Assembly: GCA_965649765.1 (NCBI GenBank)
Contig: OZ287756.1
Coordinates: 41,788,001-41,852,000, forward strand
From: Bispira polyomma
Taxonomy: Eukaryota
Direction of reading: 5' to 3'
Length of the DNA: 64,000 nucleotides
This document shows, one piece after another, positions 1 through 61,730 of this stretch. Position numbers and translations under genes: made by a program. The notes beneath the pieces were generated by a model. That model saw only the letters and a list, made by a program, of their open reading frames with translations. It was not told the origin of the DNA and searched no databases. Within the stretch, counting starts at the first letter, position 1; every line of letters starts with the position of its first letter.

Positions 1-266
1 TATGTTCAGAACTTTAGTGTTGTGTCATAATGCTGAGAAATAGTTTGTGATGACTTTGTGAGAGATACCTAATTAAGTCAGGAACTTAAAGAAAGTTATG
101 ATACTGTTAAAACTAAAAGTCTGTTTTAAGTCATTATAGACTGTGAAACTTAGAAACAATCGAAACTGGTTGTCATACTGTTTCTGTGTTCTTGGTCTGT
201 AGCTCTGTTCTATACATCTTAAAGCGCCTTTTACCAGTGAGGTGGCTGGTAAGGAAGTGTCTGAAA

Positions 267-640
267 TTATAAATAACTGTCAAGGGTAAATAAGTCAAGT
301 GGAACATCATACCTAGTGAAGTTGTCTGTAAAAAGGTTTTTTACATAATCGTCGCAATGCACTGATTCATACCACCAAGATAACACATTTGCAATTATAT
401 TGTCTTTACCTGGAATATGATTAATATTTAAGTCAAACTTTTTTGTAGCGCATATTTGCCCTATGTTTTGGAGGCATAGACCTAGATAATCATCTCTGGT
501 GTTAGAAGCCTGGACAATGGCCACCACAGCCATGTTGTCAGACTGAATCTTAATTTGTATTTATTTTTCCATTCATGGCCCCATAGTTTTAATGCTATTA
601 AAACGCTGACCATTTCGAAATGTACAATGGAAAACGTGTC
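267..640 (-). pseudogene. RNase H domain remnant of element 0
   Basis: DNMAVV and HIPGKDNIIANVLS are DIRS-type RNase H motifs; the frame is disrupted upstream. Confidence 0.8.
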
Positions 641-3600
641 AGTTACTTTCCCCAAGTATTTGAAATCAAGACAAGTACTGTGAATCTAATTTAGTTTGTC
701 TTTGTCTATACTGAGGTTTTCTTCTTATTGTGTCATATGGTGTTTTAACAGTGCAGTCATTTAGAGAGTTCTCTGCTGGGTGAGATAGATTCAGTATAAG
801 ACAGCGCTTGTCAATGTTTTTAGGTACAGTCAAAAGTGGAGAGCAATGTATGTTGGGGTGAAGGTCAGAACTGGCTGGGCCACTAAAGTGCCTCGTTCGA
901 GTTCTGTGACAAAATATTCGTCAATAGCTTCTGGAAAAGTTCTAGCTGAGTATTGGTTTTTAACATTTTGAACTGTTAGTCTATCTCTATCATAAAGTGA
1001 AGTAGGAAAGCCAAATTCAATATATTGTAATATGATATTTGTTTAAATATTTTCATATCTTGTATTTTGCAGGCAAGTGCAGGAAAAGGGATTAAAAAGC
1101 TACACTGACCTGTTACAATTAACATATAGTTTACTGTCACATAGTATATTTATAATAAAAAGTAACCACATTTATCACTACTTGTCAATGTACAAAAAAA
1201 CCTCAGAAAAACACCTTAATACTATAATTATTCCATTAATAGTATCCATCTATCCCATATTTTACTGAAATGAGCAAAATTTGATTTTATCTTAGCAAGC
1301 ATTTCCTGCTCTTTATATATACCTTTAATTACCCTTTGTATAATACTAAAATACATTTTTTTATTTAATTTAGCATATTGAAAAAGGTAGTATTTTGTCA
1401 CTAATATAATTGTATTAACTGGTATAAAGTTTTGATCAAAATAGGGATAGCCCATTTTAATAAAGTAGTCAGTAAAAGTGATTCTTATGTTCAAAGCATT
1501 TAAAATCCAGCTTGTTATATGGTTCCATATTTCATTTGACACATTACATCTCGCAAACAAGTGGATAATTGATTCTTCTTCTAAATTACATAGTCTACAA
1601 CTTGCACTTGCCGAAATGTTGATCTGTTTCAGAAAACGTCTAACCCCTATACGGTGTGTTAGGGTATGGTATTGCAGCCAAATTAAAGCATTATCTATCA
1701 CAGTTATTTATTATCTATAACAAATTCAGTATGCAAACTTCCAACTATCTATATCAATATTAAGATTTAAATCTGTATTCCATTTATCATTACAGAACAC
1801 TTTTTTTGAAGAATTAAAAACTTTATATAGAGCTCTACTGCCCTTATTATTTTTGGAGAAAATTCTTATATGAGACGGATGGACTGGCCTTAGAAAGGGG
1901 CTCTCATTGTGATTCTTTTTTAATGTATTTAAATACTTATTTACCAAAGATTTAATTCTATAATACTGTAGATATTTCACTTTTATCAAGCCAAATGAAG
2001 CTTTTATGTCTTCAAAATTTAGTACCTTTCTTGACACCAGGTCCACTATATTCCCTGTGTAAATTACATTCTTTTCAAACCAATGTGGAAAGAATAGAGG
2101 AGTACTTTACCAGAAAGGACTGGATAATCCTTCCTCAAAGGTTTCAGGGTTCAGTAGATAACATAGTGATAACCAAGAATGTATGACATTTGTCTAAAAT
2201 GGATTATCTGCAACTATTTTTTAAAGCCGTTGCAAACCCATCTGACATATATTATCAGTATGCATTACAGAGCTTTTAAATAATTTTACCCAGTTTGCCC
2301 CTGAATCGAAAATTACTCTGTTCACCCAGGTTTACCCAAGTTTACCATATTTAAACCACCAACCGAATAGTATTGGGTACATTGAATTCTGCTAACCTTG
2401 TCAGGCTTATTGCCCCATATAAAGTTGAAAATTAACTTATTTATTCTTTCTATTAATTTAATATCTGGTGTTGGAAGTGACATAAATAGATGGTTTAGTT
2501 TGCTTAGAACAAAAGTTTTGACAATTGATATCTTACCCAGTGGAATCAAACTCTGTTGTTTCCAGTTTATGAGGGTTTTTTCTATTTCTTGTAGACATTT
2601 AGTGAAATTTATAGATATAATATCCACCAAATCTACTGAAAATTCCAGTCCTAATAATTGGAAAGTATCTATATCCCAACACAAAGTTTTACCAATATTA
2701 AGTTTTTCCTTACATTTTCGTTTTTTCTGATCCAAATCAGTTTTGTTTTCTCAGTATTGATCCTCAAGCCGGATAAGGAACCAAATACTTCTAATTTATT
2801 TAAAGCAGCCAACAGAGAGCCCATAGATCCATCAAGAAACAATGTAGTGTCATCAGCAAACTGTGTCGACTTATATTTATATTCCTCAATAAATATGCCC
2901 TTCATATTTTTGTAATTTTGTATTAATTTGCACAGAACCTCGGCACAAATAATAAAAAGATAAGGTTAGATTGGATCTCCTTGGCGACAGCCTCTCTGGA
3001 TTTGAAAAAATTCTGAAAGCCACCCGCACTGTATAATTGCTGCACTGATATTATGATTAAATAAATTGATCCATTTTATTATATCTTGACCAAATTGAAC
3101 AGTTTAAGGACCTTATTCATAAATTTCCAAGAGATTGAGTCAAAAGCCTTTTCAAAATCTATGAGCATCAACAATCTAATTTTTTTGTTTACTTCACAAT
3201 GGTGCATTAGATCGTAAACTAGTCTAGTACTTTCTCCAATGAATTTTCCCTTAACAAACCCTGTTTGAGTATTTAAAATTATTGTGGTCAATATTTTTGT
3301 AATTCTATTTGCAATACATGCCGATGCAAGCTTATATATTACACAAAGAAGTGATATTGGCCTCCAATTTTTTAAAAACTGCCGCGGTTTATCACCTTTT
3401 GGAGGGCAAGTTACTGTACATTGTCTAAGGGAAAGTAACAATTCTCCTGTCTTGAAACTATAGTTCAGACTTCGCCAGATAAAATATTTTAACTTCAACC
3501 AGAAGACTTTTAAAAACTCAGCAGGTAAGCCATTGATGCCTGGTGTCTTATTGTTCTTCATTTTTAAAAGAGCTTCTGACAGTTCTATCAAGGTGATTTC

Positions 3601-3933
3601 CCCCTCTAGGGGTTAATTTTGATTATCATCTAATTTATTTAGTTTTGCATCTTTAAGCAGTGGTTCAAGGTCAATGTCAGCTAGGTTTGAACCTCTATTG
3701 CTAAACAAATTTCTGTAAAAGTTTTCGACCTCTTCTAATATGCCCTTTTGGTCAAGTAAGGTCACATTTTTTGTTCTTGTACTTGTCTTATATTTTTCCA
3801 GAATTTTTTTGCTTTCCAGGGAATAGAAGTATCTAGTTGGCCTTTCATCTTCAGATAACCATTGCATTCTTGACCTTACAATATGACCATTTAGTTGAGT
3901 TTCTCTCAATTCTGTTTACTTGAGTTTCTCTCT

Positions 3934-4087
3934 CAGTCCAATGGTGGTGTGATAAGTTATAAGTTAATAGGAAAGTTTATTATAAGACAGTAAAAGATTC
4001 CATTTGAGGTTTTTGTTTACATGTTAGCTTATGTACAGGTTGACAATCAAAGTCAGTTAAAATTTCAGGATGGAATTTTAAGCCCCA
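3934..4087 (-). repeat. Element 1 terminal repeat B2
   Basis: 154 bp, nearly identical to 5186-5339 and to the start of 63396-64000. Confidence 0.95.
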
Positions 4088-4961
4088 TCACGACTACCAT
4101 AAAATACAGCCGGGTCAAAATAAAAACCCATAACAAAGCTAAAAATAAGCTAAGAGACAATCACAAATATAAAGAATAGTGTAAACCCCTCAGTCACACC
4201 AGACTTTGGATTAGAACCAATAAAATAACCTCAAAAGAGGAAAATACATTTAAATACATTGATTACTATAAACATGACTATCATTATCATCACCTTTAAC
4301 TAGTTCATTATGTGAATAATGTACTGTAATACACAACAAGGTTACTTTTGGTGACTAAGATACTAAAAACAATTTCAGGGGATAAACTTCTCAGTTTACT
4401 GTAAATTCTGACATGTATTTGTGATACGTGGATACTAATTGACGCTACGTGATCGTGTACAAAAGGTGCCCTTCTGGGGACCACACGTGTAACCAAGTTA
4501 TGGTCATTGTGTATAAATTGGTACGTTGTGTTACTTATTCAACAAGTGGTATTAACTAGCTCAGTAAGCGTCCCTTGGATCGTTAACTTGAGTCATATGA
4601 AGCTGACCACTCTAATGTCGCGTATGTTATAACCTCATATGAGTAAATGTTCAAATATGCTTATAAATTGAAAATAAGTTCAAGCAAGAGAGAACGTGCA
4701 ACGTAGTAACAGCAGGACCCCGGGCCTTGGACACCAACCGCCTAGCAGGGTGAAGTCCAACCTCTCAGAGCCCCTTATTCCACTCTGGAACCCCAGTGGT
4801 GAACTCAGAGGCGGGAGTAAGAAGGAAGAATCCCAGACCCACACAGCTCGGAACCCGGCCGCCATGTTGCCGTCAAACCTGCCTGGATAACCTTATGCAT
4901 CAGAAAACCTTAAAAATTTCTGTAAATCCTTAATAACGCTGTGGTAAGTGGAGGTGGTGGG

Positions 4962-5339
4962 TTTCAATTTTTCTAAATGTCCTGTTCACAGGTGAAAACA
5001 CAAATTCAATATGGAGGATAGCTATCCTAGCTAAGGGGTCACTAATAGCTAATGCTGTGATTGGATAAGGCCCAGATGGACAGAAAGTTGGATAATGCTA
5101 TTGCATTCGCTAGGGATTAAAGTAGTGTGATAGAAAAAGGAGGTTGGACTGATATAGCAGTCCCCTGGGGTGGACTTGCTATGCACAGTCCAATGGTGGT
5201 GTGATAAGTTATAAGTTAATAGGAAAGTTTATTATAAGACAGTAAAAGATTCCATTTGAGGTTTTTATTTACATGTTAGCTTATGTACAGGTTGACAATC
5301 AAAGTCAGTTAAAATTTCAGGATGGAATTTTAAGCCCCA
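4962..5339 (-). repeat. Element 1 internal B1-A2 junction repeats
   Basis: A2 (4962-5185) abuts B1 (5186-5339); the junction reads GGACTG-TGCATAGC on the minus strand. Confidence 0.95.
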
Positions 5340-6313
5340 AGCCCAACTAAGAAGGGGGGATAGCCACAGCAAAGGTGAGAGGCACCACTGAAGCAGCTTA
5401 GCAGGTCTTCTTGTAGGTAGGTCCATACAGCTGAAGACCTCCACAGGCCATGGGACATAATATTCTGCAGTGATACGTTTTTATTAAAAGCAAATGTGGC
5501 CCCCGACCTCCTAAATGTGTGGAACCCGTGTGAATGGTATGGAATGTGTTCTAAAACTCTCTGTAATGCGACTCTCACATGTGTCTCTATGACTGGGTAA
5601 AATGTTTAACTGCAAACAGTGGTGCAGATGGAGAGAGAGGCCTAGACAAGATAAGCTGCTGTATAGCCCTTACTGAACATAAAATTTGGTTTTGAAGTAC
5701 AGGAATTTGTATAATGTGGGAGTCTAATCTGTTTTGAAGGTTCAAGATGACATCCATTTCAAGATGACATGGGCCCCAGGTGGGGCAAAAATAATATCCT
5801 GTCTAAGAAAGTGCCTAGATGGGTCAAACGCTGCCCTAGAATGAGAAGCCAGATTGGACAGTCTCAAGAAGCCGAAAAAGGCTAGAAGGAAATTAGCCCT
5901 AAAAAGTACTGGATCTTGCAATATCTGACAAGCTTGGGATATCTGTGTTAACTGATGTATATCAAACAATCCCTTAGGTCTAGGCCTGAAAGTAGAGTTG
6001 ATGGTAATGCTTCTCGTAAATAAAGAAACAGAGTTGTGTGTAAAAGGAGCCATACTCCACTGTAATTTGTTAGCCATAAATTTAAGTGATGAGAGGTAAT
6101 TGGCAATGACAGCTGGTGAAAGGCTATTCTGTGCTAAGTATTCTAAGAAAGCCAGAACTGATGAAACATTAATGTATTTAATGCCTGCAACATGTAAGAA
6201 AGCTAAAAATGTCTTGAATTGGTTACTGTAAGCTGTAGTGGTCTTTGGTCGCAGTGCCAAGTCTATTCTGCTGCAGGCTGATTGAACAAGTGTGTGAGTG
6301 GAACTGGCAGAAC
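5330..6313 (-). pseudogene. Tyrosine recombinase of element 1 (frameshifted)
   Basis: FFGFLRLSNL (catalytic R), HTFRRSGAT (HxxR), HGLWRSSAVWTY (H/W and Y). There is no ATG, and the frame is preceded by a TTTCAG acceptor-like site. Confidence 0.92.
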
Positions 6314-6319
6314 CTGAAA

Positions 6320-7067
6320 TTACACAGATAAGGCCAGGTCAAAGTACTTTATAGGTACCTTATTCCATTTATAACAATTTTGTAATTTAACAGTTAGCTC
6401 TGCAGTAGGAGGTTTGTCTGAAAATAGTCTAGAAAGAGCATCTGCAATCACATTATTTTCCCTGGAATGTGTTGTATGTCAATTGTGATGTCATGTCTGG
6501 CAGCTAGCAGCCAGATATTCCTCAAACATGAGGCCAGAAAGTCATCCTTAGTTTTTTGTGAATTCACAACCAGTACTACGGCCATGTTGTCACAGTGAAA
6601 CAAAATTCATTGATGCGCCCACTTTAACGCCCATACACGCAAAGCGTGAATGATATTCAGCATCTCTAAGTGAACTATTGTCAACTCTCTGCCAAAAACA
6701 TTGAAATATGGTGAAGCATACACCTCATCTTTCCACACGCCTCCTAAACCGGTAAGGCAAGCGTCTAAATGTAACTCACTCATGTTTTGAATAATAGGAT
6801 GGTCAATGAAAGTTACTCTGTTAAATGTCTGTAAGAACTGCTTGAACCATGCTAAGTCGTTCCGCATGTCTTGAGAAATAGCAAATTTCTTCTTACCCTT
6901 GTTGTTTCTAAACGTGTGAAGCAGTCTATTAATAAAAGTGCGTGCTGGCTTGACGCATTTGTGCACATACAGAAGTTTCCCTAAGAGGGACTGAAAATGA
7001 CTGCGCGTTATGAAGCGCCTGTTAAACACGTCGCACACACATTCAAGAATCTCTTCTATTTTTTCAT
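6320..7067 (-). pseudogene. RT thumb / RNase H of element 1
   Basis: FQSLLGKL, LHLDACLTGLGG, IVHLEMLNI and CDNMAVV motifs. Confidence 0.9.
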
Positions 7068-10000
7068 ATTATCGACCATCACCACTATATATTGTTGTCT
7101 GTTTTTGTGCTTGGTTCCCCTTTTTTGTACCATCACGTTTACTTTTAGCGCTTGGCCCTTTTGTATCCTCACGCAATATTTTATTCCTTGTTTTTCTCTG
7201 AATTGCTTTTTTTTTTTTTCCCCCAATATGTTTGCCATTAGGGCTGCCATCTTGTACCTGTCATTCCTTACGTTCTGTTACCGCAACGACTATCTGATAC
7301 ACTGTCAATGCAATACCACCTGGAAGACATTAATTTGTCTTGCAATCCTGTTCCACACTTCTGGTCCCTTCATACACACTGTTATTTTCGATCTAAATTC
7401 TGCCCAGTCAATTACCTACCAAAGGCTGAAACATTCAAACTCATTACTATCCTACTGGCAGGTGATATTGCGAGTAACCCTGGCCCAATTCAGTTCGGAT
7501 TTGGAAATGCCTGCTCGTTGCGGAATAAAGGCCCTGTCATAGCCGATTTGATCGACTCATCCTCCATAGATATTTTCGGCATCACAGAAACACACATTAG
7601 GAGTTCTGATACTCCATCATTCCTCTTTGAACTTACCCCAGCTGACTTTCAGCTATTCCATACCCCTCGTGTAGGTAAACAGGGTGGGGGGGTGGGATTT
7701 TTTATTAAGAAAAACTATGAATGTCGATTAGTTGCTACACCAAGTTTTACATCTTTCGAACTCATCCTTGTCTCTGCTCACTGGAAAAACCAGTGTTTAA
7801 ATGTTGCAACAGTTTATCGGCCTCCTGGCTCAAATCTCACTACATTTTTCGAAGAATTCATGTCTTTTGTTGGGTTTACTTGCTCGTTACCCTCTCCTAC
7901 TGTATTCTGTGGGGATTTCAATATTCACATAGACACCGCATCTGGAAATAGTAATCGGTTTTCCACAGTTTAGGAATCTTGCAATCTTACCCACCACATA
8001 AACTTCCCTACCCCTATTCATGGGCATACACTAGACTGCTTGCTAACTCCTACTGATTTCAATGGTATCAAAAACATAAAAAACATTGGTTGCATCAGTG
8101 ATCATTTTTCGATATCCTGTGAAATTGATGCTCCCTCCCAACCATCTTTTGATGTCACACAAATCACTTTTCGGCAATTTCAAAAAATCAATATGTCTGA
8201 CCTTAGACGAGAGTTGGCAGATACGGCCTTCGTCAAGTCTCCTGCTGATAATGCCACTGACCTATACACACAGTACTGCACTGACCAGCAGTCTCTTATA
8301 GAACGCCATGCGCCATGTAGATCAAAGACATTGAAGAAGCCAGCACCTGAGTGGATCACCAGTAATTATCATGAAATGAAGATGCTGCGCAGGCAAGCCG
8401 AACGAAGATGGCGCCGAAACAAAACAGCTACAAATAGATCTAGACTACGCCAATGGATCACCCGGTGCAACAACACTATAAATGACTCAAAACGTGCCTA
8501 CTATGCTAACATGATATCACAAAGCGAGGGTGACCCGAAGAAACTTTGGCAAAAACTAAATAACACCCTCCACCGTAAAAAACAGACTATACTACACGAA
8601 AATTCCAATAGCAAATCACTGGCAAACATTTTTAGTACTTTTTTCACTGATAAAATTACCAGGATCCGTGACGGTTTTACATTAGCTGCCCCAAATGCCC
8701 CTTTACCAACAGCTCCTCCAACCGTCTTCAACTGTTTCTCCACAGTAACTGTTGATGAAGTCAGGAAAATTATACTAGCATCACCCGTAAAATCTTGCTT
8801 GCTAGATCCGTGGCCCACATTCCTTGTCAAAGAATGTATTGATATTTTATTGCCCTCAATCACAAAACTTATCAACCTCTCGTTGATAAATGGCGTCTTT
8901 CCAGATGATTTTAAAAAGGCTATTGTCACTCCTTTAATAAAAAAACCTTCTCTTCCAAAGGCTGACTTGAAAAATTACCGTCCTGTCTCAGGCCTTTGCT
9001 ATATCTCTAAGTAGAACGCGCGGTTGCCTTACAGATCAAACAACATGTTGACGTCAGCAATCTGTCCAATAAGTATCAGTCAGCCTACAAAAGTGGTCAT
9101 TCTACTGAGACTGCACTTCTCTGCATCAAAAATGATGTTCATACATCTTTATCCAAAGGTATGCCTACTGCCTTAGTACTGCTGGATCTGTCAGCAGCCT
9201 TTGATACTATTGATCACAAAGTTCTTCTTGAATGCCTATCGTCCTGGTTCGGTATCAGCGGTATGGCGCTTAAGTGGTTCACGGCATATTTATCTGATAG
9301 ATTCCAATCAGTCAAAATTGGCAATATCTTATCCGACCCAACATGGTTAAAATTTGGTGTTCCCCAAGGTTCCGTCCTGGGTCCCATTTTGTTTTCCATG
9401 TACACCACTCCACTCAGCAAGATTATTGCTGCATACAAAAACATAAACTTTCACTTCTATGCTGATGATACCCAACTGTACATCCACCTTACACCTGACT
9501 CTGCCCAGGTAGCTTTCACTTCCTTACAGAACTGCCTTGTTGATGTACAACACTGGATGGCAGCAAATAAACTCAAGCTGAACCCTGAGAAGACTGAGTT
9601 TATTTTGTTTGGCTCCAAGTCGCAACGGAAAAAATTGTCCAGCTGTTTTCCACTTGACATTCTTGGCAGCAGGTTTTTTCCAGCTGACAAAGTACGAAAC
9701 CTGGGTGTGGTGTTGGACTCTGAATTTTCCTTCTCGAACCATGTCGCATCGGTGTGTAGATCATGTTTTGTTGGCCTCCGTGATTTCAGGCGGATTCGAC
9801 GCTATCTTTTCAAATCCACTGCAATCACTGTTGCCAATGCTTTGGTCAGCAGCAGGCTTGATTACTGCAACTCTCTGTTCCGTTCCTTATCTCGTAGTGA
9901 TCTCAGATGCCTTCAGAATATCCAACACTCATTGGCACGTATTGTGACCAAAACATCCAAATTTTCCCACATTACTCCTGTACTCAAGTCACTGCACTGG

Positions 10001-10483
10001 CTCCCAATAAAATATCGTGTTGCTTTCAAAACAGCAACAATAATATATAAATTTCTAAATTCTGGATTACCCACTTATTTTAGCCCCCATCTATCCAAAT
10101 ATACATGCTCAGTCAGGACTAGGCGCAGTAACCCTGATAAATTATACCTTAACATTCCCACTTTCGACCCTCGCATCCACAAATCCAAAGTTCAGTTCAA
10201 TCACTGCCTAGCTCATGATGGCCCCCTCATTTGGATCAGCCTACCTGATCATGTTCGCCTGGCTCAAACTTTCTCCTCTTTCAGGAGTAAGCTGAAGGCC
10301 TATCTTTTTGAACAGGCTTTTCCACCTTAGCCGTCACAACCATCTACGGTAGTCTCCCTGGTTACGACTTCCATCCGCCCACTATTTTTGATTTGCGATT
10401 AACGTTTTGGGTTTGTTGCGCCTTAGAATTTGTTGTACAAAGATTAAGCGCTATAAAAGTACGACTAGATTAGATTAGATTAG
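7068..10483 (+). mobile_element. L2-clade (CR1 group) LINE, near full-length single EN-RT ORF with few lesions, inserted in the pol gene of element 1
   Basis: EN motifs GITETH and GDFNIH. RT motifs NYRPVS, LDLSAAFDTIDH, GVPQGSVLGP and YADDTQ. L2-typical SRLDYCNS, HITPVLKSLHWLP and FRSKLK. (TTAGA)n tail at 10466-10483. The host frame IQH|EKIEE is restored if the insert is removed. Confidence 0.93.
9161..10330 (+). CDS. L2 reverse transcriptase, C-terminal 389 aa (part of disrupted ORF2, ~7228-10330)
   Basis: YADD catalytic motif and QGSVLGP; upstream portions are in ORFs 7308-7973 and 8040-9014. Confidence 0.88.
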   Translation: MPTALVLLDLSAAFDTIDHKVLLECLSSWFGISGMALKWFTAYLSDRFQSVKIGNILSDPTWLKFGVPQGSVLGPILFSMYTTPLSKIIAAYKNINFHFYADDTQLYIHLTPDSAQVAFTSLQNCLVDVQHWMAANKLKLNPEKTEFILFGSKSQRKKLSSCFPLDILGSRFFPADKVRNLGVVLDSEFSFSNHVASVCRSCFVGLRDFRRIRRYLFKSTAITVANALVSSRLDYCNSLFRSLSRSDLRCLQNIQHSLARIVTKTSKFSHITPVLKSLHWLPIKYRVAFKTATIIYKFLNSGLPTYFSPHLSKYTCSVRTRRSNPDKLYLNIPTFDPRIHKSKVQFNHCLAHDGPLIWISLPDHVRLAQTFSSFRSKLKAYLFEQAFPP

Positions 10484-12252
10484 ATGCTGAATGCTAATAG
10501 TACCAGCGGCAGTGTCAATGTTAATGCCCAAACAAGTAATGCTAGTACTAGGTGGGGTGCGTTTCTTGGCATTCATGGGGAGACCTAAATAGTCTAGCAG
10601 TTTGGTCAAAATCTGAAAACCCCTGTTAGCCTCTGCTCTATTCGAGACGCAAATGTAATCGTCGATGTAGCAGAACATATTGAAACCGTTTTTGCGCATA
10701 TATGACGCTATTGCGTCAGAGCAGCGTTGGAACGCCGCGCTGCCATGAATCCAGCCAAACGCCACCGCAGGATCTATGTAACTACCCTTTTCAAACTGGA
10801 TTCCTAATTTTACAGCGTCGACAGGATCTACACGCAAATTACGGAAAGCGCGAGCTACGTCAATTTTAAACAATACCGGATCATCTGTGACTTTGATCGC
10901 ACTAGTAATATCATCGATTGTAGGAAATTTCAGAATAAATATTTTCTATCAAATAAATTCTTATCAACATTCTCATTAAGCGAATTGCCTTGTGGGTATG
11001 AGAGGTTAAGAATTACCCTACGACTAATAATGTCCTTGGGACGTGTGAGAAGTGGTGAACAATGATAATGTGAGGAGCTAACCTCCTTCACTGGGCCCAA
11101 CATGGCACCCTTATTACTTTCTTTAACCAGATATTCTCTTTCACTACTTGTGTGTTGGAGGGCAGAATAATGATTGGTGACAGAGGCATTGTTAAGCATT
11201 TTTGGATTGGTGAGAGAAAGAGGAAAGCCGAATCTAATGTACTGACACAGCAACTGGTCAGGATAATCTTGGAAAACTTCATCCCATGCATCTGGATTAA
11301 GTCCTGACACCAGGGGAACCCTTGCTTGTCTATAATTGGGAAGTGCAGTGTCTCTGATAACAGAAGCCACTTGCAGCATGTCTTCTACTGTTTCAATTTT
11401 CCTAAAAGGTTTGTCAGGACCTATGAATGTGAATGCTGTTGAGGAAAGTGCTAAGAAACCCATGGTTTTCTCGGGGTCATTAAAGTGCTTAATTTCTTTG
11501 TACAAATCCTTGTTTGCTTCAACACTATCAACCATTTGGGTGAATTCATTGCTCGACGAGTTCATGTATTCAGTATAATCAAAACCCAACTGCTTGAAAC
11601 AGGCATTATCTCTTTTGAAATAATAAAATGTATCACCAGCTTGCTTGACCACAGCCTGGTGATGAGTTTCCACATTAGTAATACTGGTAGTATTTAAAGA
11701 AACAGCCGGAACCTGGATTATGGTTTGAAAGGTTTGAATAATACAAAGGTTTTGGCTAGGTGGAAATTCAACACGAGCATATACACACCTGGCAGCAGTC
11801 ACGTCATAAAACATGTGGAAATAACCTGAGAATTTTCCATCCCTATCCCTAATGTAAACAATTGGGGCCAAGTTTTGAATTTCCCCACAAAAAGTTTTCC
11901 AATTGGTGACTGATACCTGACACGTGTGTGTCTCTTTGTTCCAAGCTGGTGAATTAGCATAGTGACTGCTCCCATTTGAAATGCAGGCCTCAGTGCTACT
12001 GTCCCATCTATGGTAACCTGACTGGGTCCTGCTTTGAAATTGAATACATTCATTTACATTCTTGGTTTCATACTGGTAGTTGTCGCCAGCATCTACTGAA
12101 ACTGCAATATTATTAAAGACATCATTATCAACAAAGTTCACATTTATATCAGTGTTGAATACATTATTGACAAACCTTGTACTATCTGACATTACCATCT
12201 GCTGATAATCATTACTATTGGAACTTTGCACAATTGTATTAATTTCAGACAT
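10484..12252 (-). pseudogene. pol (RT) of element 1, with a long N-terminal extension
   Basis: QYIRFGFPL, SPLLTRPK, RRVILNLS, KIDVARAFRNL, FGW..GSAAF and YIDD motifs; frameshift near 10930. Confidence 0.92.
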
Positions 12253-12387
12253 GCTTCTGTCTCAATAACCTAATTCACTGTTTTTGTCCTTTATATTAAA
12301 CTCTTTTACAAATTTACTGTTACCGTTCATCATTGAATTACCCTTATCACTACCTAATGTTCGTCCAACTGGTTGTGAATCGTGGCC

Positions 12388-13623
12388 CTAGATGTTACCT
12401 TGGTGTTTGTCTGGCTGTTTACTTACATTCGCTTTAAAGCATTTGAACTCTGGGTGCGACGCGTCCTTTCCTAATGTCTTATTACAATACCAGCATACAT
12501 GACGATAATTGCCATGATCCGCCTTGTGAGTACACTTGTCATTATTAAACAGCTTACAGATGGATTTACTTTCTGAAGAAGCCCCGTTAGCCAAGTTACT
12601 GCCGTTGTTGCCTACCATAGGCATCTGGGAGGCACTGATGCGATTCAGTGCCCACTGAGTGTTGTCCTGCCAGGACAGCCTGCCTTCCTCGATCTCATGT
12701 ATACTGACAGCCCAGGCTGTCCTGACAGCAGGCCACGGAAGTGTGGCTGCATCCCGTAGTGCGTGTACCACTTGGTTCACCATAGCTTTCATTGTTGTTG
12801 GATCACTTACTTGTAGCGAGTTGGCCAGCTGGCCAGCCGCCCACTGTGGCAACGTGAGGTCGTCAAAGACTGGCCTTCGACGAGTCGATCCCCCACCCCA
12901 ACCTTCGTTAGACCATCTGAGTTTGGGATCAGCTAAAGTAATATCTGTGGAGTTATAACGACCAGACTTCTGGCTGATTGAGTGCTTACCCTGGACTAGA
13001 CCCCTCTGGGCCAAGGCTTCGTAGTCAGCTAGCTGCCTGGTAACGGCCGCCTGCACGTTTGGAAAATATCTTAACGCATTGAGACTGGGGACAATGCCAT
13101 CTGTGTTGTAACCCCGACCTGTTAGTGGTTGCATCATAGGTTGAGCCAGCGGCTGCGCAACCCTGTTGTACCTGGGAGGGGGAAGAGGTAACGAATAACC
13201 CTCATGTCTCTGTTGGACCACCGTACCATCCCTCATGGTGCGTAATGGAGAATTAGCAGGTGTAACTGTCTGTTTGTCCTCTACGAGTTGCAATCACCGG
13301 GTTATGTTAGCGTTGGAGGTCTCCAGACCACGCAGGATTGAAAGAACCTCGGACATGCTTTGTGACTCGACTTGTGACTGGGGTACGGCCTGAGATGAGA
13401 GCCCGGTTTGGCTAGATGATCCATTTGAACTGGTCAATAACTGAGAATCAATAAGAGGACACTGCGTGTCGGCAATGACTGTTCTATGTATTTCTGATTG
13501 ATCGTGAGTATTAGTAGTAGTTACCTGACCAGTACCCCTTTTCTTGGCTGTACTAGTTGAAGTTGTCTTTGTGGTCCGTTTCTTGCTGCTTAACACGGGA
13601 GTTGCTTTTGTTTTCCCCATTTC
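12388..13623 (-). pseudogene. gag-like ORF1 of element 1 (one frameshift at ~13293)
   Basis: Basic, Ser/Thr-rich N-terminus; KSGRYN...W..EG block; C-terminal CKLFN..KC.H...HVCWYC...H....C Zn motif. Homologous to 30830-31911 and 43159-44144. Confidence 0.85.
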
Positions 13624-13712
13624 ACACAACAATCACTAGTTCCCGTACCACGTCAGTTAATAAAAGAATAAAATATAAATAAAACCAATTCAGTGTAAAT
13701 ACATGGTTAAAA

Positions 13713-13936
13713 TTTCAATTTTTCTAAATGTCCTGTTCACAGGTGAAAACACAAATTCAATATGGAGGATAGCTATCCTAGCTAAGGGGTCACTAATAGC
13801 TAATACTGTGATTGGACAAGGCCTAGATGGACAGAAAGTTGGATAATGCTATTGCATTCGCTAGGGATTAAAGTAGTGTGATAGAAAAAGGAGGTTGGAC
13901 TGATGTAGCAGTCCCCTGGGGTGGACTTGCTATGCA
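13713..13936 (-). repeat. Element 1 terminal repeat A1 (5' end)
   Basis: Direct repeat of 4962-5185 with a handful of substitutions. Confidence 0.95.
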
Positions 13937-16900
13937 ATTCTGTTAACTCCTGATTATCAGTGCTATGAGTACATTCATTCTCACGAAATTCTATTTCCTG
14001 TTTTAGTTTGTTTTCTATTTTCAAGGTTTCACGTTTCAACATTGTGGAGAACTTAATAGTTTCTCCTCGGATCCTGAGCAACAAACATTCAAGGAATGTA
14101 TTATCATTTATTGAAAAGTGTAAGTCCTGATCCGGTATTTGTTCAAGATTACCATATTTATAGACTGGAACTGCATATCGAGCTTTCTCTTCCTCTATTA
14201 CTTTATTAATTAGGCTCAGATAATCCTCATTTTTAAACAGGCTTACATTAAATTTTCAGATACCCCTTCCTTTTTCAAATTTGTTTAAAATTAAGTCCAG
14301 TTCTAAAATTGAATGGTCGGTTCTGTATCCTGGTAAACTATCAGATTTATGAATAATATCAGTTAAAACATTTGACATCAAAAAATAATCAAGCCTAGCC
14401 TGTTTTAAGGGGTTCTTTTTCCTCAAAGTGTATCGCCTCTTGTTCGGAGGATTTAACCTGTAACAGTCAGTTAACCCAAAGTTTGAATCATCTACAACAC
14501 AGCCCTATGAGATCTAGGGTTGTTGATGCTCGTGTAGTTCATACAATCTTTGTGGATCAAGCACTAAGTTAAAATCTCCACATACAATTGTATATTGCTC
14601 ATCATTTGATTCAATAAATCCAGCCACCTGCCTAAAAAATTCAGGGGTGTCCGTATTTGGAGCATATAGGCTTATTAAACGCATTGAAAATGTGCTTAAT
14701 TTTAAGTCCATGACAAGTATATTTCCTTTTGTATCCTTAAAAACTGTCTTTATTTCACATTCAAAGTTATTGTTAATCAAAATTGCAACTCCTCTGCTAT
14801 TTGTACTATAGCCGTTAAGTATACATTCACCATTCCAGATAGATCGAACTGCCTTTTCATCTTTTTGTACCCAATGTGTGTCCTGAAGGCAAATTACACT
14901 CGGATGTAAGTCTTTTAGGTATTCTGAAACATCTGTTCTTTTTTTTTTATCTTGTAAGCCTTGACAGTTTATTGATAACACCTTCACTGTATCAAAAATA
15001 GGCATATATGTAATGACCTCTAATAGGGCTCTGAGCTGACCGCTTCACACAATTCGAAGTGAGCTCGTTTGGGCGTCAATGAATTTTGTAGCATTTTGCC
15101 TCAGCATTTGGATTCATTTTCTTATTGAGTCGAAAGCAATTTGCACAAATATGTTTAAATATCATGTTATTGCCTTCATGATCTTTCTGATGTTGGCATG
15201 CATTTTTGATAATGCCTGCAGGGCATCTCATTCTTGTTGGAAATTCGAGGAGGAAATTAACATTAAGGCCTGACAATAAGAAAGACTGTTCATGGTCCCT
15301 TTGGTGTAGATGACCCAACTAAAACGCCCCTATTCAACATCATGCATATTGCTGGCAAAAGCACCCCAAGAGATCTCCCAAGAGATGTTGGATGCATCCT
15401 TGAGGGTGTCTGTTAACTAGAAAAGCATGGCTTGTGAAATGGTAGGGTTTTTAACTTCAAGTATATTTTGAATCTGCCTAGCAGAAAACTGTTAGACTGA
15501 TAACTTGTTGAAATAAACTCGTTTTTTGCTTACAACAGATAAGCAGGCCTCGTTCGCCCAAAGCTTCACAGAGTAAGATACACACACTTTTGAAGTATTA
15601 TAACATCCCGAATTACGTTTGATGGTCAGCTTACCTTGGAGACTCCAGTCTGTGGCCCAGGCTTCAAATCATGCTAGCCGTTGAGACACCTCATTCTGGA
15701 TGAGCGATGACTGCTTTAAAACTTCGGGAGTCAGTAAAATGGAGTCTTTGAGAGCACGTTGGGTTGTTTCGTGGTCATACTTGTCATGCAGACTAGTTGG
15801 TTGATGTGTTGAGAAATCTGCTGTGAGAGGTTGGGGTACGAATACGCTGGCGGAGTTTCCTCTGTTGGTGTCATAAAGCCCTAGTGGAGTGGGAACTTTG
15901 AGGTGTGTTATGAGTAGAAACACAAGCAGTCTCTGTCTTTTCGGATTTTAAATATGACACATCTTCTTGTAGTTAAGAAACTGTTGTTAATAACGTTTCC
16001 ATCATAGTTTGCTAAATTGAGTATGCATCACAGTAAAATTTATCATTACTCACTTGCTCACTTCTCCCAGAAACACTGCTACAGTCGTCACTGTTGAAAA
16101 TGGTTTGGTTAAGAAAGCTATTCTCTGTGTCTATAGTACGTTTGCATCTATTTTCGACTGACTGTGAATGATTTCACATCTGGAGCACGAAGCTGTGTCA
16201 ATAGAACTTTTCTTTTTTTCTCTACCCATTTTAAACAAGTATCCACACAAAATAGCACAAAAGATGTACAGTATCGGCCTCTGTATGAAAAGTATCTTTG
16301 TAGAATAATAAACACTTAAGAAAGCAATTTGATTTTTAAGAATATTTTATAAAAAATTCTAATATGTCTGCTGATTTCTTAAGATTTTTGTTGTTAGTCT
16401 TTTTGTTGTTGGTAGCTTGACTTCTGACTTATTAGTGAGCTTATAATGAAAAGGGTGCAAAAACGCCAAGAAGTGTAAGCATGTGATTGGGTGCTGATAC
16501 ACAGATGCAGCACTGGGGTTGGAGTAGCTGTGATAAACAAATAATTTGAAATAGACGGTACTGTAATGTATAACATTTTCGAGGCTGAGTAGCCAAGAAT
16601 GGTTTCAAGTAATTTTAAGGTCCAAACTTTATAATTCAATTACTTCAAGAACAATTCTAAGTTAAACTCAACTTGAGTTTTCTTAACCCCTGAAAAGCCT
16701 TTAGCTTGGAGGTGACCGTAACATGAAGTTAAGGATATCATGATTTATTTTACCCTAATTTTGAAAACAATGGATTAATTAAGTAAGTTAACCTTAAGAT
16801 GAGTTAAGGTTATTATAATTTGTTTTATCCCAATTTTTGAAACAATGGATTAATTAAGAATGACCTTAGAGTATAAGTTAATGTCACCCTAAAGTAAGTA

Positions 16901-18339
16901 CAATGTAACAATTGTGTTTAAGGTTCAAAGTGAAGTGATGTTCACTTTGTATACTTAAGTATAAAGTTAGAATAACGGGTTGCATGAGTACCTGATGCAA
17001 ATTGTGTGAAAAGTATAACTATAGATGTAAATTTATTTAGCATACCAGAATGATTAAGTTAAGGGCTGTAGTGAAAATGTCCAAAAGGTGTTGCGCTTTA
17101 GAAGATGCCTAGCATTAATAATTCGCTTAAAAAATGCATAATAATAATATCTTTCCCTCCAATATTCTGTCGATCATTCTTCAGCCAATCATGCATTTTT
17201 TCACCTTTCACATTTTCTCTTCTCCACTCCATTTTGGAATTAAAAATTGAAAAGCAAACACTAGAAACAAATATTCATGAAGCCACCACCTCCTATAATC
17301 TCAGCTAATAAGTAGGTCTCTGTATATCCATGTCATTCTTTCTTTTGTGGTTTTGTATAACAATTCAGTTTACTGTTTCCTATAGATCCTGCATGTATGT
17401 ATTCTTAATTAATGCAGTAAACTATCTGATTAGGGATTCATGGCTGCCCACACAATTTGCTGGTGGCCCCTACCGGACTTACCTATGCATGCTGAGGCAT
17501 AATTCTTAATATTGTGTCTTCTTTTTTCCTTGTCTTCTGTCCATTAGCAACATGCATGTTATGAGGAAATATTTCAGGGTCAAAAATGCCAATGTAGCTG
17601 TGTGCTGTCAAATACGGCAGAGTTAATATGATATATGGTCAAAAATATAGGCTGTATACAGTCTTTCTTACTATTTTGTTGTAAAATATACCATAATGTT
17701 CATTATTTAGATGCCAACGAGTACAGGCTAGTCCTATATCCCGAAATCATCCACGGAAGCACCCACTGGGCGATAGGGTGAAATTGGAGAGAAACCAGGG
17801 GTGGGCGATTACGTGAGCATTGACCATTATGAAGTAGGATGCTAGCAAACAAGGTCAACAAATTACATCATACCAAAAACTAGATGTTTTGTTTACGTTG
17901 GGCTATACTAAAACAATATAATATGGATGTATTAAACAAGGGAAAGTAGTTTTTATTAAGTAATTATTATATATATCACCTATGGTACGTGTTTTTATGT
18001 GTAAAATTAGATATTTTGCAGCTTTTTAGCCCATTTTAGGGGTGGGCGATTGTTGGTATTTTATGTCCAACAGCCCATGACTTTTTTGGGTTAAACCTTT
18101 GTATGAAATGATTAACAAGATACATATGTAAAAAAAGAGATTGTATCAAATAAAACTGCAGCTTAAAAAGTAGTTACACACATCGAGATAAAAGTCATAA
18201 AATAAACTGAAGGAAACACAAAATATTGAATAGAATAATTCACAAGTTCTAAACAGTATTAAAAAGATATGTCTTTAATCTGATCTAATTTAATCTAACT
18301 TGTATAGCTTATCTCTGTGCTATCAGATTCTAAGGCGCA

Positions 18340-19237
18340 TGTCTTTGTCACTGCCACGAAGTAGCATGGCTAGTCAGCCGCGGAAATGCTATACTTTACT
18401 GTACTTCTATTTTCAAACTATTTGCTTATCACAGTCACTCCTCACCCCAACGCTGCATTCAGATAACACCTCCACTCTCCTCGGCGTTTCCCGCCTTTCT
18501 TATACTCTCACTGATAAGTCAGAAGATAAATCTCTCTTACTCTCCCCAGCGCTATGATAAGCTCATTATTAAGTCAGAAATCAAACTAACAACATCAAAA
18601 ATCTCCCAACCCTCCTCCCTTGTACATATTTGTAGAATATCTAAGGATTGTGGGTTTAACACTCACTTCTTTGCCTTAGGGCATTAATTCTTTTAAAATT
18701 GTTTAAGCTATGATTGGTTATTTTTTACCATATTGCTTTATCTTTTATGTTTAACTATGATTGGTTATATTTACCATATTGCTACAGTAGCATTTTAATT
18801 TTAGTTATCACTGCTTATATTTACCATATTGCTGTACTAGCATGTTAGTTTATTTTGTAGTTATCATTGGTTATATTTACCATATTGCTTTATTTTCTTA
18901 TTTTTAGCTATGATTGGTTATACTTACCATATTGCTACTAGCATTTTATTCTTAGTCATCATTGGTTATATTTACCATGTTGCTTTGTCTATGAGTTCCC
19001 TTACTCTTATATTTTATCTTATGTGTTGGGTTTTTTAAACCCTTTACTTGCTTATTGGCATGTTAAAATTTTAGTTCTTATCTAAAATTTTCTGTACATA
19101 GAAGCTAAACATTTATAAACTAAAGATTTATAAATAAATATCCCAAACTGCATCTGACCTCTTACCTTTCAAAACCTCACACACAAGGTCAAACTACCAT
19201 CTTATGACCTTGACCTTAAACTCATTTCATTCGGCTG
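18340..19237 (+). mobile_element. 0.9-kb non-coding insertion, probably a non-autonomous derivative of the element 0 family
   Basis: Absent from the duplicate (empty site GGCA-TG-AGAC at 60202-60211). Flanked only by TG. Its first ~130 bp resemble the reverse complement of the element 0 5' repeat (57800-57930 and 16490-16594). Confidence 0.7.
18708..18987. repeat. Minisatellite, 6 copies of a ~47-55 bp unit with core ATTGGTTATATTTACCATATTGCT
   Basis: The repeated core is read directly from the sequence; the linkers are related AT-rich sequences. Confidence 0.9.
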
Positions 19238-21135
19238 AGACAGAAAAGCATTTGACAATTTTATATAGCCTTTGGATGTACAGAAGTTATGACCATAGAG
19301 AGCCTGAAGAAGGTAAGGTGACTGAGGTAGAGAATCCTTGTTTAATAGGTAGGTTTTAAGCTTTTTCCTAAAACAGGCAAGTGAGGAGGCAGTGCGAATA
19401 TCATGAGGCAGATCATTCCAAAGCTTAGAAGCATTATATGAGAAACTATTGTTTCAATGTATTTTTGACTTGTGAACTGATCCCACAAAGGTAGAGAAAA
19501 GGTAAGAAAGCATTCTGAGGCCTTGGATTGCGTTTAACAATTTTTTGAAATCATGACAAGGTATGGCTGATGTAATAGTTGCAGGTAATTTGTTCTACTC
19601 TCTTAGTATGGCTAATTTAAATTATTGTGTAGATGTGCTGGATCTTAATAGATGTTCCTGAAGCTTGTTATCTGTGCTTGATCTTAAAGTTCGATTTAGG
19701 TGCAACAGTTCTGACAGGACTGATCCCTGTGGTACTCAAAAAAATAAGTTAATTTTGTCCAATGTTGTACCATTGATTAGAACAGTCTGTCGATTAGGAT
19801 CTGATGACCAATTGTGTCAAAAGCAGCAGTTGAAATTTGTTTATTAATGTCACTTTGCAAATGCAGTAGGGCAGTTTCTGTTGAGTGACATTTATGGTAG
19901 GCCCGTTGAGTTTTCTGCCCTAAACTGTCATGCTGGGGATGATATTTTAGTCTAAGAGCAACAACTATGTTTTTCGTACTATACAATGGTTTTACAATTG
20001 TAATTAAGGCTCGTTAAAATATTTTAATACAACATGATGAAATATTTATACAATGTGCGGTATATCTAAAAGAAATCTGAAATAAAGTGATATTACGCTC
20101 ATGAGGCATGTTACTTGCAAAACATATTGACTTTTGTGGTTGATATCTGTACTGTAGTCCATTAGCTAAACAGCTTAACCTTGTTATTTTTTGTTACTGC
20201 ACACAAGTATTGGGGTGTCATTGGTCTGAGATATGTTGCATCTGTATTTACTTATCATTATCTGTCATTAACATTTAAATTCCAATTTTAATTGATAACA
20301 ATAGCTAAAAGTGATTTAAAGCAAGTCACATATAAATGACTACATACCAGATAATAAAGCTGCCAAAAACTGGTGGTTTCAGGAAAGTAATATATAAATA
20401 GCATAGCAGTTTATAATAATCTATTACTCATGGTACAATGCCAAAATGATAAATCTTTACTCATTCTAAAGAACGACTAATGTACAAGTGTAGTAAAAAA
20501 AAAACAATAAAAATAAATATTTATTTAAAACAATGAAGAAGTTCTTGATGTAGTTATTTTATTTTTGCTCTAACAATCGCAAGTTCCATTACATATTTCA
20601 CATGTTTGTAACTGTCACACTGCAAGTCTCATTCTCACGTTTAGTAAATTGAAGTAGTTGACGATAAAGGTGTAGTAGTAGTTGTCTTTTCAGGTGTAGT
20701 TGTAGTTGTCTCACCTAAACAAATACAGCATTGAGTCAGTACAGCATGACTGTGGCAACCAAAACTACTCTTATTTTGTTACATTTGTGGTTCTAACGTT
20801 TTTTGGGATTACTACATTTGTTGTCGGACATTGCTTCATTTGTTGTTATAGCTACATATGTGGTTGGAAATTGTTACATTTGTGGTTATAGTTATATTTA
20901 TAGTTTTTGTTACGTTTATGGTTGGCACACACGACTTCCACTTTCATGAGTTAAAAGTTGGAGTTGCCCGAGTAACACAGAGTTATAACTTTTGGTTGAC
21001 TGGAAACTCGGCCCAAAAATGGATAACCATAATGCAGTGTCAGAGTAACCTATGACCGTGCAATGAGTAAGAACGAGGACCAAAGAGTTGCCAAAATGTA
21101 TACCAAGTTGCAAGGAGTTATACAAAGATTACACC

Positions 21136-21474
21136 ATTTGCAAAGATTCTTATTATTAGCATTACAGTTATTCTTAAAAAAAATTGACAATTTGTCTTAG
21201 ATTAGGAAATTTTTAAGAAAAATTATAAAAATAACACTTTAAAATTTGTTTTATTCCTATTCTTTGACTTTTTACATAAAAAATTAAATAAGGCTAAAAT
21301 CTAAGAATAGAACAAAAATGGGCAACTTTGTGGGTAGTAATTCTGCACAAAAATTCAAGATTAAGAAAGCAACAAATGTTAAAAAAATATTCTCAGAATT
21401 TTTCTTAGAAAATTCTTGGATTAAAAAAAGAATAAGAGTAATTTTAAGAATAAGAATCTTTGTAAATATGGCCC
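21136..21474. mobile_element. MITE (Harbinger-like TIR), left tip deleted; duplicate of 62117-62468
   Basis: ATTTGCAAAGATTCTTATT ... AATAAGAATCTTTGTAAATATGGCCC inverted repeats. Confidence 0.7.
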
Positions 21475-24400
21475 AGGAGTAACCAAGAATGAATCTTAGT
21501 CTAGTAGTTAGTTATGTGGAGCTCTTACAGACTTCTCAAGAGTTAACATAACTTTCTAGCTCTTGTTATCTCTGGTTTAAGCCTGGACAAGCATCTTGCT
21601 AGCCTATGGATGAATTGGGAGAACTCATGAGAAGCCTGTGACAGCTCAGGAATAACTGTACATGTCCATTGCTTGGCTTTTGTCGAATTATGCATGACTC
21701 TTGACAGGTATTTAAAAAAATCTCCATAACTCAGCTTGGCTCTTAGGCTGCAAAGACCTGCAGAAGTTGTCCTGATTTATTAGGTTTTAAAATAACTTGT
21801 CCAATAGCTATATCCAGTTATTAGTTGTTTTCCTCAGTTGACCCAGAGTTATCATGAGTCCTCAACTTAGGCTAAAATTTTGAACATAGCAATAATAATA
21901 TTACTTATAGTAATACTACCTTTGTGCCACTGAAAAATAAAGTAAAATTTTAAAGTTGAAAAATCTGTCCATAGAGATGTCTGTTTAATTTCAGAAGGTA
22001 ACAACTATTAACCTGTTTTGAGGGTAACATTTAGTTTTGTCAAATAGAGACAAGGACATTTTATTCTGCCAATTATCATTATTGTATTGTCAGGAGTAGA
22101 ACCAGGGACAACCTGATAACCAGATCAACTCCATAACCACTAGGACATAGGAGACAATACAGCTATGGTTAAATTACAAAGGACATGTAAACCTAAAAGA
22201 AGTAATAAAAACATTGTACTTTAATGCTTTAAAAAATACCACATGTAATATAATATACCTATTGTAAACAAGAGGAAGTGACCTTCCGGGCACAAATCTC
22301 GAAGACATGTATCTATTTGTCAAGCTGTGTACCTAAAAGTAAACTAATATTATCTGTCTATCTGTCATTGTATAAGTTACAACAAAAAAAAGAATCTGTC
22401 TACTTGTCAAACTAAAAGTAAAAAAAAATAATCAACTGACTATTTGTCGACATGTCAACCTATAAGTTAAAAAAAAATATTTTTATTTTATTTTGATTTT
22501 GGTGTTGAAGCTTCTTGCTAGTGTATAGTCATGGGATACAATATTTTTGTCACATTATTTCGCAGATTTCTGGAGCTGCAAGTTTTACAAAAGTAACAGA
22601 AACAGAAATGTCAACCTTTAACAACAAAGCAAATATTTTTACAAAGAATAAATACTTTTGCATCTTCTGTCAAAATGTGAAGCCATTATTTAGATTAATA
22701 ACTGCGAAATAACATAATAATAATAATAATTACAGTATTTAATGTGCCAATATCTATCTAAAGATAATCACTGACACTACAAATTATTACCCCAAACCTA
22801 TTTTATATCATTAGGTAGCTCACAGAAGTTGCTTTGTTTACCTACAACTCCATCTTGATTGTTGAGGGTCAATTTGTCTGTTGTATGGAGCGATTTCATT
22901 GGTTACTGTATGAGCGATTCTGATTTGCTGATCAGACACATGTGACGATTCATAACAATAAATACTGCGTAATTGGGAAGCCCATGGATATATTTAGAAA
23001 GCAAATTGAAGGGAATAATGGATGAAGGGTGAATTTTTATTAGAAATGTTATTGTATTTGTATGACAAAATAAAGAGTTTATCTTATTTTCTGGTGTCCG
23101 AAATCTGTAGAAAAGGGTTGGTTTTTTACATCGAAATTAGAAATAAATTAATTATGAAGCCATATTATCTAAACTACGCACATATCAGCTGATATTCTTA
23201 GCGGAAGAAAGACAGAATATATATATATCTATATATTAGGGAGTATCTATTAGTATGCAGTACCATTTACCAACATACGTTTTCATTTAAGAAGCAAATT
23301 TAAGCGATTAATATAAGACGAAAGGTAAATTTTAGAAATGCTATATGTATTTGTATGACAAAATAAAGAGTTTATCTTACTTACTTTTGTTCCGAAATGT
23401 CCAGATAAGGGCTTGATTTTTAAAATAATAATAATCCGTGGATATATTCACTAAAAATAAAGCATGCACTATTTTTTTTATATACTTCCACGACATATTA
23501 CCTACAGAGATAGATTCACATGTTTTTATTAGCCCTCACTGCAATAAATAAACAGCATCATTTTGAAATATGAGTATTGTTTTCTCTTATTTTTAGATAT
23601 AATTGCTTTTTAAACGAAAACGTATACATCCCCTTCATTTTATATAATACGCATGGGGTATATATAAAAATATATATATATATAGAGATTAATTGAATTT
23701 AAATTTACGTACTGTTCCTGGACAAAATATCTATATACTTTGCAAATGCTTTCAAATCTGTTTACAGCTCTTGCAATACTCGCTATATACACATAATCGT
23801 TTAGAAGTAAAAAATATTGTTTCCTCAACATATTTAACCCCAAGTACACACAATATCTTATATTTTTTTATTGAAGCATGTGTATATGGCCGTTTTGAAG
23901 ACAGAGTAATTTATTCTATATATGTCTATTTTAATCGGCCAATCAGAAACTCACCCCATCTGTAACAATATTTGTACTTGTATATGCTGTGTATATATAC
24001 TTGGGGTACCATGACCGTTTCAAATAATCTATACATATATATTTTTACTTTGCCATTCATAAACACCTTATATCTTCATTTCATTTTCATATTATTTCCT
24101 ACCTTATATCGATGGATATCCAAGTATATTGTAGTTTGAATATGTGAGTGAAGTATATCAGTGCACATAACCACAATAATAATAAATCATTTTGCCATAC
24201 ACAACATTGCTTTGAAGTAGTCAAATGGCCATTCAAGTATCTATATACCTGTAGACGAGTACACAGATGGCGGAAGAAGGGTTGAGTTTCTGATTGGCGG
24301 TTTAAAAATTGTTTAGTACTACAAATATGTCGGTTTCGAAAGCTATCGAAGTCTGGTAAACTCAAGAAATATTGATGGATTAAGCAACTATATATGCCTA

Positions 24401-61599: not shown

Positions 61600-61730
61600 A
61601 GTAGTTGTCGTTACAGGTGTAGTAGTAGTTGTCGTTACAGGTGTAGTAGTAGTTGTCTTTTCAGGTGTAGTAGTAGTTGTCTGTGCAGGTGTAGAAGTAG
61701 TTGTCTCTTCAGGTGTAGTAGTAGTTGTCT
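61600..61730. repeat. 24-bp tandem repeat CAGGTGTAGTAGTAGTTGTCNNNN, ~5 copies (2-3 copies in the paralog at 20652-20710)
   Basis: Read directly from the sequence. Confidence 0.9.

Follow-up and report, generated by a model that had tools for sequence, protein, structure and literature searches.

Conserved splice sites predict a messenger RNA joining Gag to the tyrosine recombinase in Ngaro-like retrotransposons of Bispira polyomma

The translation of the third gene of tyrosine recombinase (YR) retrotransposons is an unsettled matter, and the proposal that we found in the literature is frameshifting from pol. PMC13003380 quotes Poulter and Butler (2015) for the view that the YR open reading frame (ORF) of Ngaro elements lies in the -1 frame, overlapping the end of the reverse transcriptase/RNase H (RT/RH) frame, and that its translation probably depends on a frameshift. 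For Ngaro-like and PAT-like elements we follow the definitions in bioRxiv 2021.08.05.455354 and PMC4157794. No description of a Gag-YR splice was found in the open literature, a search that did not extend to Goodwin and Poulter 2004, the full text of Poulter and Butler 2015, Repbase or supplements. Here we describe a stretch of 64,000 nucleotides (nt) from Bispira polyomma (GCA_965649765.1, contig OZ287756.1, positions 41,788,001 to 41,852,000), referred to as the window. It carries four gag-bearing copies of such elements (elements 0, 1, 3 and 4), all of them dead and nested. The initial annotation had read a 5' splice site in each gag and a 3' splice site ahead of each surviving YR frame, and had proposed that the recombinase is made from a spliced messenger RNA (mRNA) starting in gag. 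Our comparison with further copies supports this interpretation, for which the conservation of both sites argues strongly.

In uninterrupted copies, ORF maps place gag, pol and YR on one strand and in that order. Their pol and YR proteins match the Pfam families RVT_1, RVT_3 and Phage_int_SAM_1, and pol ends ∼40 residues past the RNase H motif. None of the four full pol proteins scanned has a methyltransferase match in Pfam, and all four match RT or RNase H-like families. ORF1 is without a Pfam match and is called gag because of its position and its Cys/His knuckle. Self-matches revealed split direct repeats (A1...B1-A2-spacer-B2) in four of the six copies checked (L049, L063, L069 and L109), and element 1 of the window shows the same A1...B1-A2-B2 order. 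The terminal repeats are direct, so the elements do not follow the DIRS1-like plan of inverted terminal repeats with an internal complementary region. Neither do they show the methyltransferase domain that marks PAT-like elements. By gene order, repeats and domain content we assign them to the Ngaro-like YR retrotransposons (order DIRS).

A YR search of the 1.04-Gb genome returned 9881 candidates, of which 150 were scored. For comparison we read 156 additional copies in this genome, together with three contigs of a single metagenome assembly. The first 100 copies were selected mostly by long open YR frames, and 56 more came from three other searches. Copies within each family are young and nearly alike. 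Therefore, the comparison was made between lineages, using 34 mutually related representatives with 27-90% YR identity (median 37%). The YR tree is a quick version that contains no named reference elements, and no relatives were found among viral contigs.

The four donors are present as annotated (a slash marks the exon boundary, and positions are those of the last exon base): CAGG/GTAAGC in element 1 (12990, minus strand), CAAG/GTAAGC in element 0 (15635, minus) and element 3 (31351, plus), and TCAG/GTATGT in element 4 (43582, plus), the last reading GTACGT in most relatives. GT is kept at the exon end in 83 of the 85 loci in which this end could be located; of a further 56 loci, 42 have the donor, two have it mutated and 12 have no usable gag or YR match. 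All 34 representatives read G/GTA, with A at -2 in 30 and G at +5 in 29, and the variants seen are GTAAG, GTACG, GTATG, GTAAA and GTAAT. The expectation that the donor glycine codon would be fixed as GGT was confirmed (11/11 in clade A, 8/8 in clade B, 34/34 overall); in seven other conserved Gly columns each of the four Gly codons occurs. Of the 39 conserved four-fold degenerate columns in the 11 clade A subfamily representatives, only that of the donor Gly has an invariant codon. The eight clade B subfamily representatives have six invariant columns out of 114, and the donor Gly is one of them. The constraint extends into the next codon, which encodes Lys, Thr, Met or Asn and always starts with A. 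In clade A this Lys is AAG in 11/11 cases versus 175/509 elsewhere, and in clade B the Thr is ACG in 7/8 versus a background of 10%. Elsewhere in the gag genes of the 34 representatives, GGT followed by A occurs at only 18 of 6086 codons. The same bias is visible in Gag homologues from databases: the residue past the matching Gly is K, N, T, I or M in 61/75 proteins versus 161/715 for other glycines, although these hits are related to each other and 14 of the 89 proteins were omitted because they have no Gly in the segment compared.

The three acceptors of the window were likewise found where the initial annotation had placed them: TAATTTCAG/GT in element 1 (first exon base 6313, minus), TAATTTCAG/AC in element 0 (260, minus) and TAAAATTACAG/AT in element 4 (46725, plus). 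An AG past the pol stop is present in the first 100 copies, for which the parser required it but the positions are visible in the sequence, and YAG is kept in 51 of 52 testable further copies. In 34/34 representatives the YR frame opens after TTNNAG: TT at -6/-5 and AG are invariant, position -3 is a pyrimidine in 33, and position -4 is free. TTNYAG was found at 79 of 15266 other phase-1 positions of these representatives. The distance from the pol stop to the AG is 6, 7, 8, 9, 12, 15, 16, 17, 19, 24 or 334 nt, or 93 nt in one copy with a probable early pol stop, and the YR phase stays 1. YR homologues that are long enough have I/L-S/V/P-G/D at the acceptor position in 21/22 cases. In clade A, YTRAY-like words lie ∼25 nt upstream of the AG, within the 18-40 nt expected of a branch point, but the same letters encode Phe-Asp/Asn of pol. 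The phases agree as well. From ATG to donor element 1 counts 631 nt, that is, phase 1, as does element 4; every acceptor leaves two nt ahead of the next YR codon, so that joining is in frame, and donor and acceptor are both in phase 1 in 34/34 representatives. Major introns have 5' sites like AG/GTRAG and 3' sites like TTNYAG/. The conserved, phase-matched sites fit this GT-AG spliceosomal consensus. The three metagenome contigs L133, L134 and L135, whose YR proteins are 39-46% identical, all have the acceptor as well, and the two with gag also have the donor: CAAG/GTAATT and TTTTGTAG/GC in L133, TCAG/GTAATA and TTGTAG/AA in L135, and the acceptor TTTGCAG/GT in L134. Because of their divergence we presume that these contigs come from another organism.

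Since donor and acceptor sequences are conserved in 34 of 34 representatives, a Gag-YR splice is likely, and we put the probability of a spliced mRNA in which the first part of Gag is fused in frame to YR at roughly 0.8. The splice-site feature itself is real and deeply conserved, and splicing would be a new way of expression in a known class of elements. From these sequences we infer that splicing occurs and that the gag donor is paired with the YR acceptor. In the simplest account a single promoter in A1 would drive the element, and the unspliced RNA would be the genome and also the mRNA from which Gag and Gag-Pol are translated. Removal of a predicted intron of ∼2.4-3.7 kb would take out the rear of Gag with the Cys/His knuckle and all of pol. 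The resulting fusion would have roughly 450-650 residues, with 132-331 from Gag (the coding length of exon 1 in the seven copies measured) and about 320-330 from YR. It would retain a conserved helical Gag motif in which one Pro and two Leu hardly vary and which ends just before the junction. In a structural model of Gag (mean predicted local distance difference test 84.8), helices span residues 20-25 and 27-49, and the junction falls into a low-confidence linker at 51-54. A fold search with this model gave no Foldseek match at E 0.001 and no clear match in VIA (best Z 5.6, root-mean-square deviation 4.8, 90 residues aligned), and the ESM Atlas returned only unnamed eukaryotic clusters. One may speculate that the retained motif serves to package the recombinase into Gag particles, beside the complementary DNA that is to be integrated. 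As a separate observation, the N-terminus of clade B Gag (L092-L128; window 43159-43230) has a Cys/His motif, C-x2-C-x3-H-x6-C, that would also be retained in the fusion; clade A has a basic, low-complexity stretch instead.

Several observations weigh against this model. The 34 representatives are related, so counts over them are not independent, and in 18 of them the sites were selected by eye after profile alignment. No spliced genomic copies were found among 51 family-A and 162 clade-B pattern matches, which contained only point variants, and in none of the loci examined does the end of exon 1 adjoin YR. A fusion of the Gag N-terminus with YR is missing from about 150 database matches to the Gag motif, and no fusion protein is among the 120 listed of 398 database hits, all of these 120 having at most 348 residues; two longer YR homologues, P0121 and P0122, do not have the predicted junction. 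To these points have to be added the U1 scores of clade A and the methionine codons near the start of YR, which are described with the alternatives below. Both longer homologues were considered as fusion candidates and rejected, P0121 as a pol/YR deletion-like product and P0122 as a gene model from a fish in which most of Gag is present. The absence of spliced copies and fusion proteins does not refute the splice model. Three unlabelled read runs (at most two samples from one study) have no bearing on expression: their coverage of L049 is even and DNA-like, and the predicted joint is absent among the 15 of 24 joints listed.

The two splice sites could be real without being partners, if YR received another upstream exon or if the gag donor served another acceptor, for example for a short Gag or for Pol. 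We regard this as unlikely. In clade A, other GT sites equal or beat the donor in their match to U1, with 0-8 sites within an element outscoring it, and acceptor-like sites in the phase of pol were seen in 10 of the 11 elements listed. However, these pol-phase sites differ in position from element to element and are absent from L133, and no second conserved acceptor for pol was found in the 11 elements inspected. In clade B, moreover, no site matches U1 better than the donor in 8/8 elements, with ties in two, and the shared phase of donor and acceptor in all representatives argues for the two sites being used together.

YR could also have a translation start of its own, an ATG located at the pol stop or close to it and used by stop-restart or internal initiation, with the splice-like sequences being incidental or secondary. 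The initial annotation had stated that YR frames lack an upstream in-frame ATG. This holds for the three YR frames of the window, in which no Met lies between the last upstream stop and the acceptor, but not for 6 of the 34 representatives. Nine of the 34 have a Met at codon 5-18 downstream of the acceptor, the pol stop TGA allows an ATGA overlap in L150, L162, L177 and L178, and gene callers begin 13 of 22 database YR homologues at M-I-x-G/D. An ATG is thus present in a minority only and has no fixed position: it is missing upstream in 28/34, and the first downstream Met ranges from codon 5 to codon 229. In 25/34 it lies at codon 28 to 229, within or past the SAM-like domain (Pfam 19-77), and a start at the first Met would therefore cut or remove this domain in most representatives. 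The codon that overlaps the stop varies as well (GTA, ATA, TTA or CTA), and independent initiation leaves both TTNYAG and the invariant donor codons unexplained. We consider it very improbable.

Very improbable, too, in our judgement, is a Pol-YR fusion for which ribosomes would undergo a programmed -1 frameshift where pol and YR briefly overlap. Of the 32 representatives with a located pol stop, 26 indeed have YR shifted by -1 relative to pol, and in 25 of these the overlap measures 4-79 nt, which is the pattern that PMC13003380 quotes from Poulter and Butler (2015). But a stop codon followed by six bases and a phase-1 AG yields the -1 frame by itself. Furthermore, the YR frame is +1 in two of the 32, and this form is found in 7/7 copies of its subfamily; in four others YR is in the same frame without overlap, and in L133 it begins 334 nt past the pol stop, behind several stops. 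Gaps of 6 to 334 nt combined with YR frames of -1, +1 or 0 disfavour a frameshift. A slippery heptamer is present in the overlap of only 5/32 representatives and is not conserved, in contrast to the strictly kept heptamer at the gag/pol junction of clade B, and frameshifting would leave the gag donor unexplained. Therefore, the recombinase likely comes from a spliced Gag fusion rather than from the frameshift of the published proposal. Lastly, we give almost no weight to the view that the motifs merely reflect protein constraint (Gly-Lys in Gag, Ile-Ser-Gly ahead of YR) and base composition: the donor does lie within coding sequence and no junction has been observed, but synonymous positions are frozen only at the donor codons, the DNA motif stays while the flanking amino acids change on both sides, and the background rates are low (18/6086 and 79/15266).

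The way in which Pol is reached appears to differ between the clades. In clade B (L092-L130; window 44132-44166) the end of gag has A AAA AAC (AAT in two copies), followed after 6 nt by a perfect 9-bp hairpin, and pol is in the -1 frame; this is likely a programmed -1 frameshift signal. At one hairpin pair both bases change, but the same is attained in 86 of 500 shuffles, and hairpin covariation is therefore unsupported. In clades A and C the gag stop is a TAG, usually with G as the next base, and pol continues in the same frame (window 12388-12390; L049, L063, L069, L149, L156); the metagenome elements L133 and L135 have an in-frame TGA. These in-frame stops suggest read-through, so that Pol would be reached by stop-codon read-through in clades A and C and by a -1 frameshift in clade B, and the gag/pol strategy would have changed while the splice sites stayed. 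Like splicing, this recoding is our reading of the sequences. A wider generalization has about even odds in our estimate: splicing of an N-terminal Gag exon onto YR may be the general and ancient way of expressing the integrase in Ngaro-type retrotransposons, with Pol made by recoding and YR by splicing, both as Gag fusions, and with the short -1 overlap, long taken for a frameshift site, as a by-product of an acceptor that lies behind the pol stop.

Element 1 extends on the minus strand from A1 (13936) to B2 (3940). Its 5' direct repeat A1 (13713-13936) matches A2 at 4962-5187 and both A1 and A2 of copy L049. Predicted exon 1 runs from the gag ATG to the donor (12990-13620; 210 codons plus one nt) and has a stop at codon 109. 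The predicted 5' splice site GTAAGC follows in phase 1 (12984-12989), at the Gly-Lys codons and just past a predicted helix. The remainder of gag (12388-12989), with a helical domain and the Cys/His knuckle, lies within the predicted intron and ends with the TAG in frame with pol. pol (6320-12387) encodes RT and RNase H, without a methyltransferase match, and ends with TAA (6322-6320). It is interrupted on the plus strand at 7063-10483, a gap in the match to L049, by an insertion whose ORFs have endonuclease- and RT-like translations and which we therefore label as like a long interspersed nuclear element (LINE). The predicted 3' splice site TTTCAG (6314-6319) immediately follows the pol stop and opens predicted exon 2, the YR frame (5345-6313, lower end approximate), which matches Phage_int_SAM_1 and is broken after ∼190 codons. 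Repeat B1 (5192-5339) and A2 (4962-5187, self-match with A1) come next, and after a spacer (4088-4961) the 3' repeat B2 (3940-4087) lies ∼0.88 kb past A2; B1 and B2 were identified by repeat comparison. In the four copies read (L049, L063, L069, L109) the A2-B2 spacer opens with CCCAC and a C-rich run, and none of the four copies checked has a long fourth ORF in it.

Element 0 has the predicted donor G/GTAAGC at 15629-15635 (minus; gag match 15068-16479) and the pol stop with the predicted acceptor at 260-269 (minus), from where YR continues past the left end of the window. The two sites are 15 kb apart because of nested insertions; uninterrupted relatives have both at a distance of ∼3.3 kb. 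In this region (260-16479) an L1-like LINE sits within element 0, element 1 within that LINE, and another LINE within element 1. Element 3 has its predicted donor G/GTAAGC at 31351-31357 (plus; gag match 30561-31970), and its remainder (48754-52301, plus; match to L159) comprises pol, the C-terminal part of YR and repeats, the acceptor region being deleted. In element 4, all on the plus strand, the gag ATG at 43159 is followed by the predicted donor G/GTATGT (43582-43588), the gag/pol junction with heptamer, gag stop and 9-bp hairpin (44132-44166, the predicted -1 frameshift signal) and the pol stop with the predicted acceptor (46714-46725). The window also contains a local duplication with 91-98% identity (15848-22129 versus 57177-63113, and 725-1289 versus 56435-57025), in which the second copy of element 0 is without the stretch from ∼1290 to 15600 and has an altered donor. 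Near-identical copies of elements 0, 1 and 4 lie in opposite orientation 70-130 kb past the window (G000:C9:41918174-41978881), which we read as a larger inverted duplication. A tandem array of 21-23 nt units in an imperfect palindrome layout occupies 53167-53422.

Compared to described Ngaro-like elements, those studied here share the order gag, RT/RNase H and YR, the split direct repeats and the lack of a methyltransferase match, as well as, in most lineages, a YR frame that overlaps the last part of pol by a short stretch in the -1 frame. They differ in a spacer of 0.7-0.9 kb that separates A2 from B2, and in expression: a frameshift is expected for YR according to the review as quoted in PMC13003380, whereas the splice sites found here predict a Gag-YR fusion. 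The YR likeness to the fish element P0122 is weak (E 1e-5). PAT-like elements share the split direct repeats and gag-pol-YR, but carry a methyltransferase domain according to PMC4157794, and none was detected in the present elements. If the splice model is correct, the active recombinase would be a Gag fusion with an N-terminus unlike the annotated one, and the ratio of genome to integrase would be set by the host spliceosome. A Gag-integrase fusion made by splicing would then join the known expression strategies of retroelements. The nearest parallels in such strategies are found among long terminal repeat (LTR) retroelements. In retroviruses (env mRNA), foamy viruses (pol mRNA) and Drosophila copia and gypsy (subgenomic mRNAs), unspliced RNA kept as genome is balanced against a spliced mRNA for a single gene, and this plan would be shared by the elements described here. 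In those LTR systems splicing yields Env, Pol or Gag and the integrases are of the DDE type, whereas here the integrating enzyme itself would be the product of splicing, fused to part of Gag.

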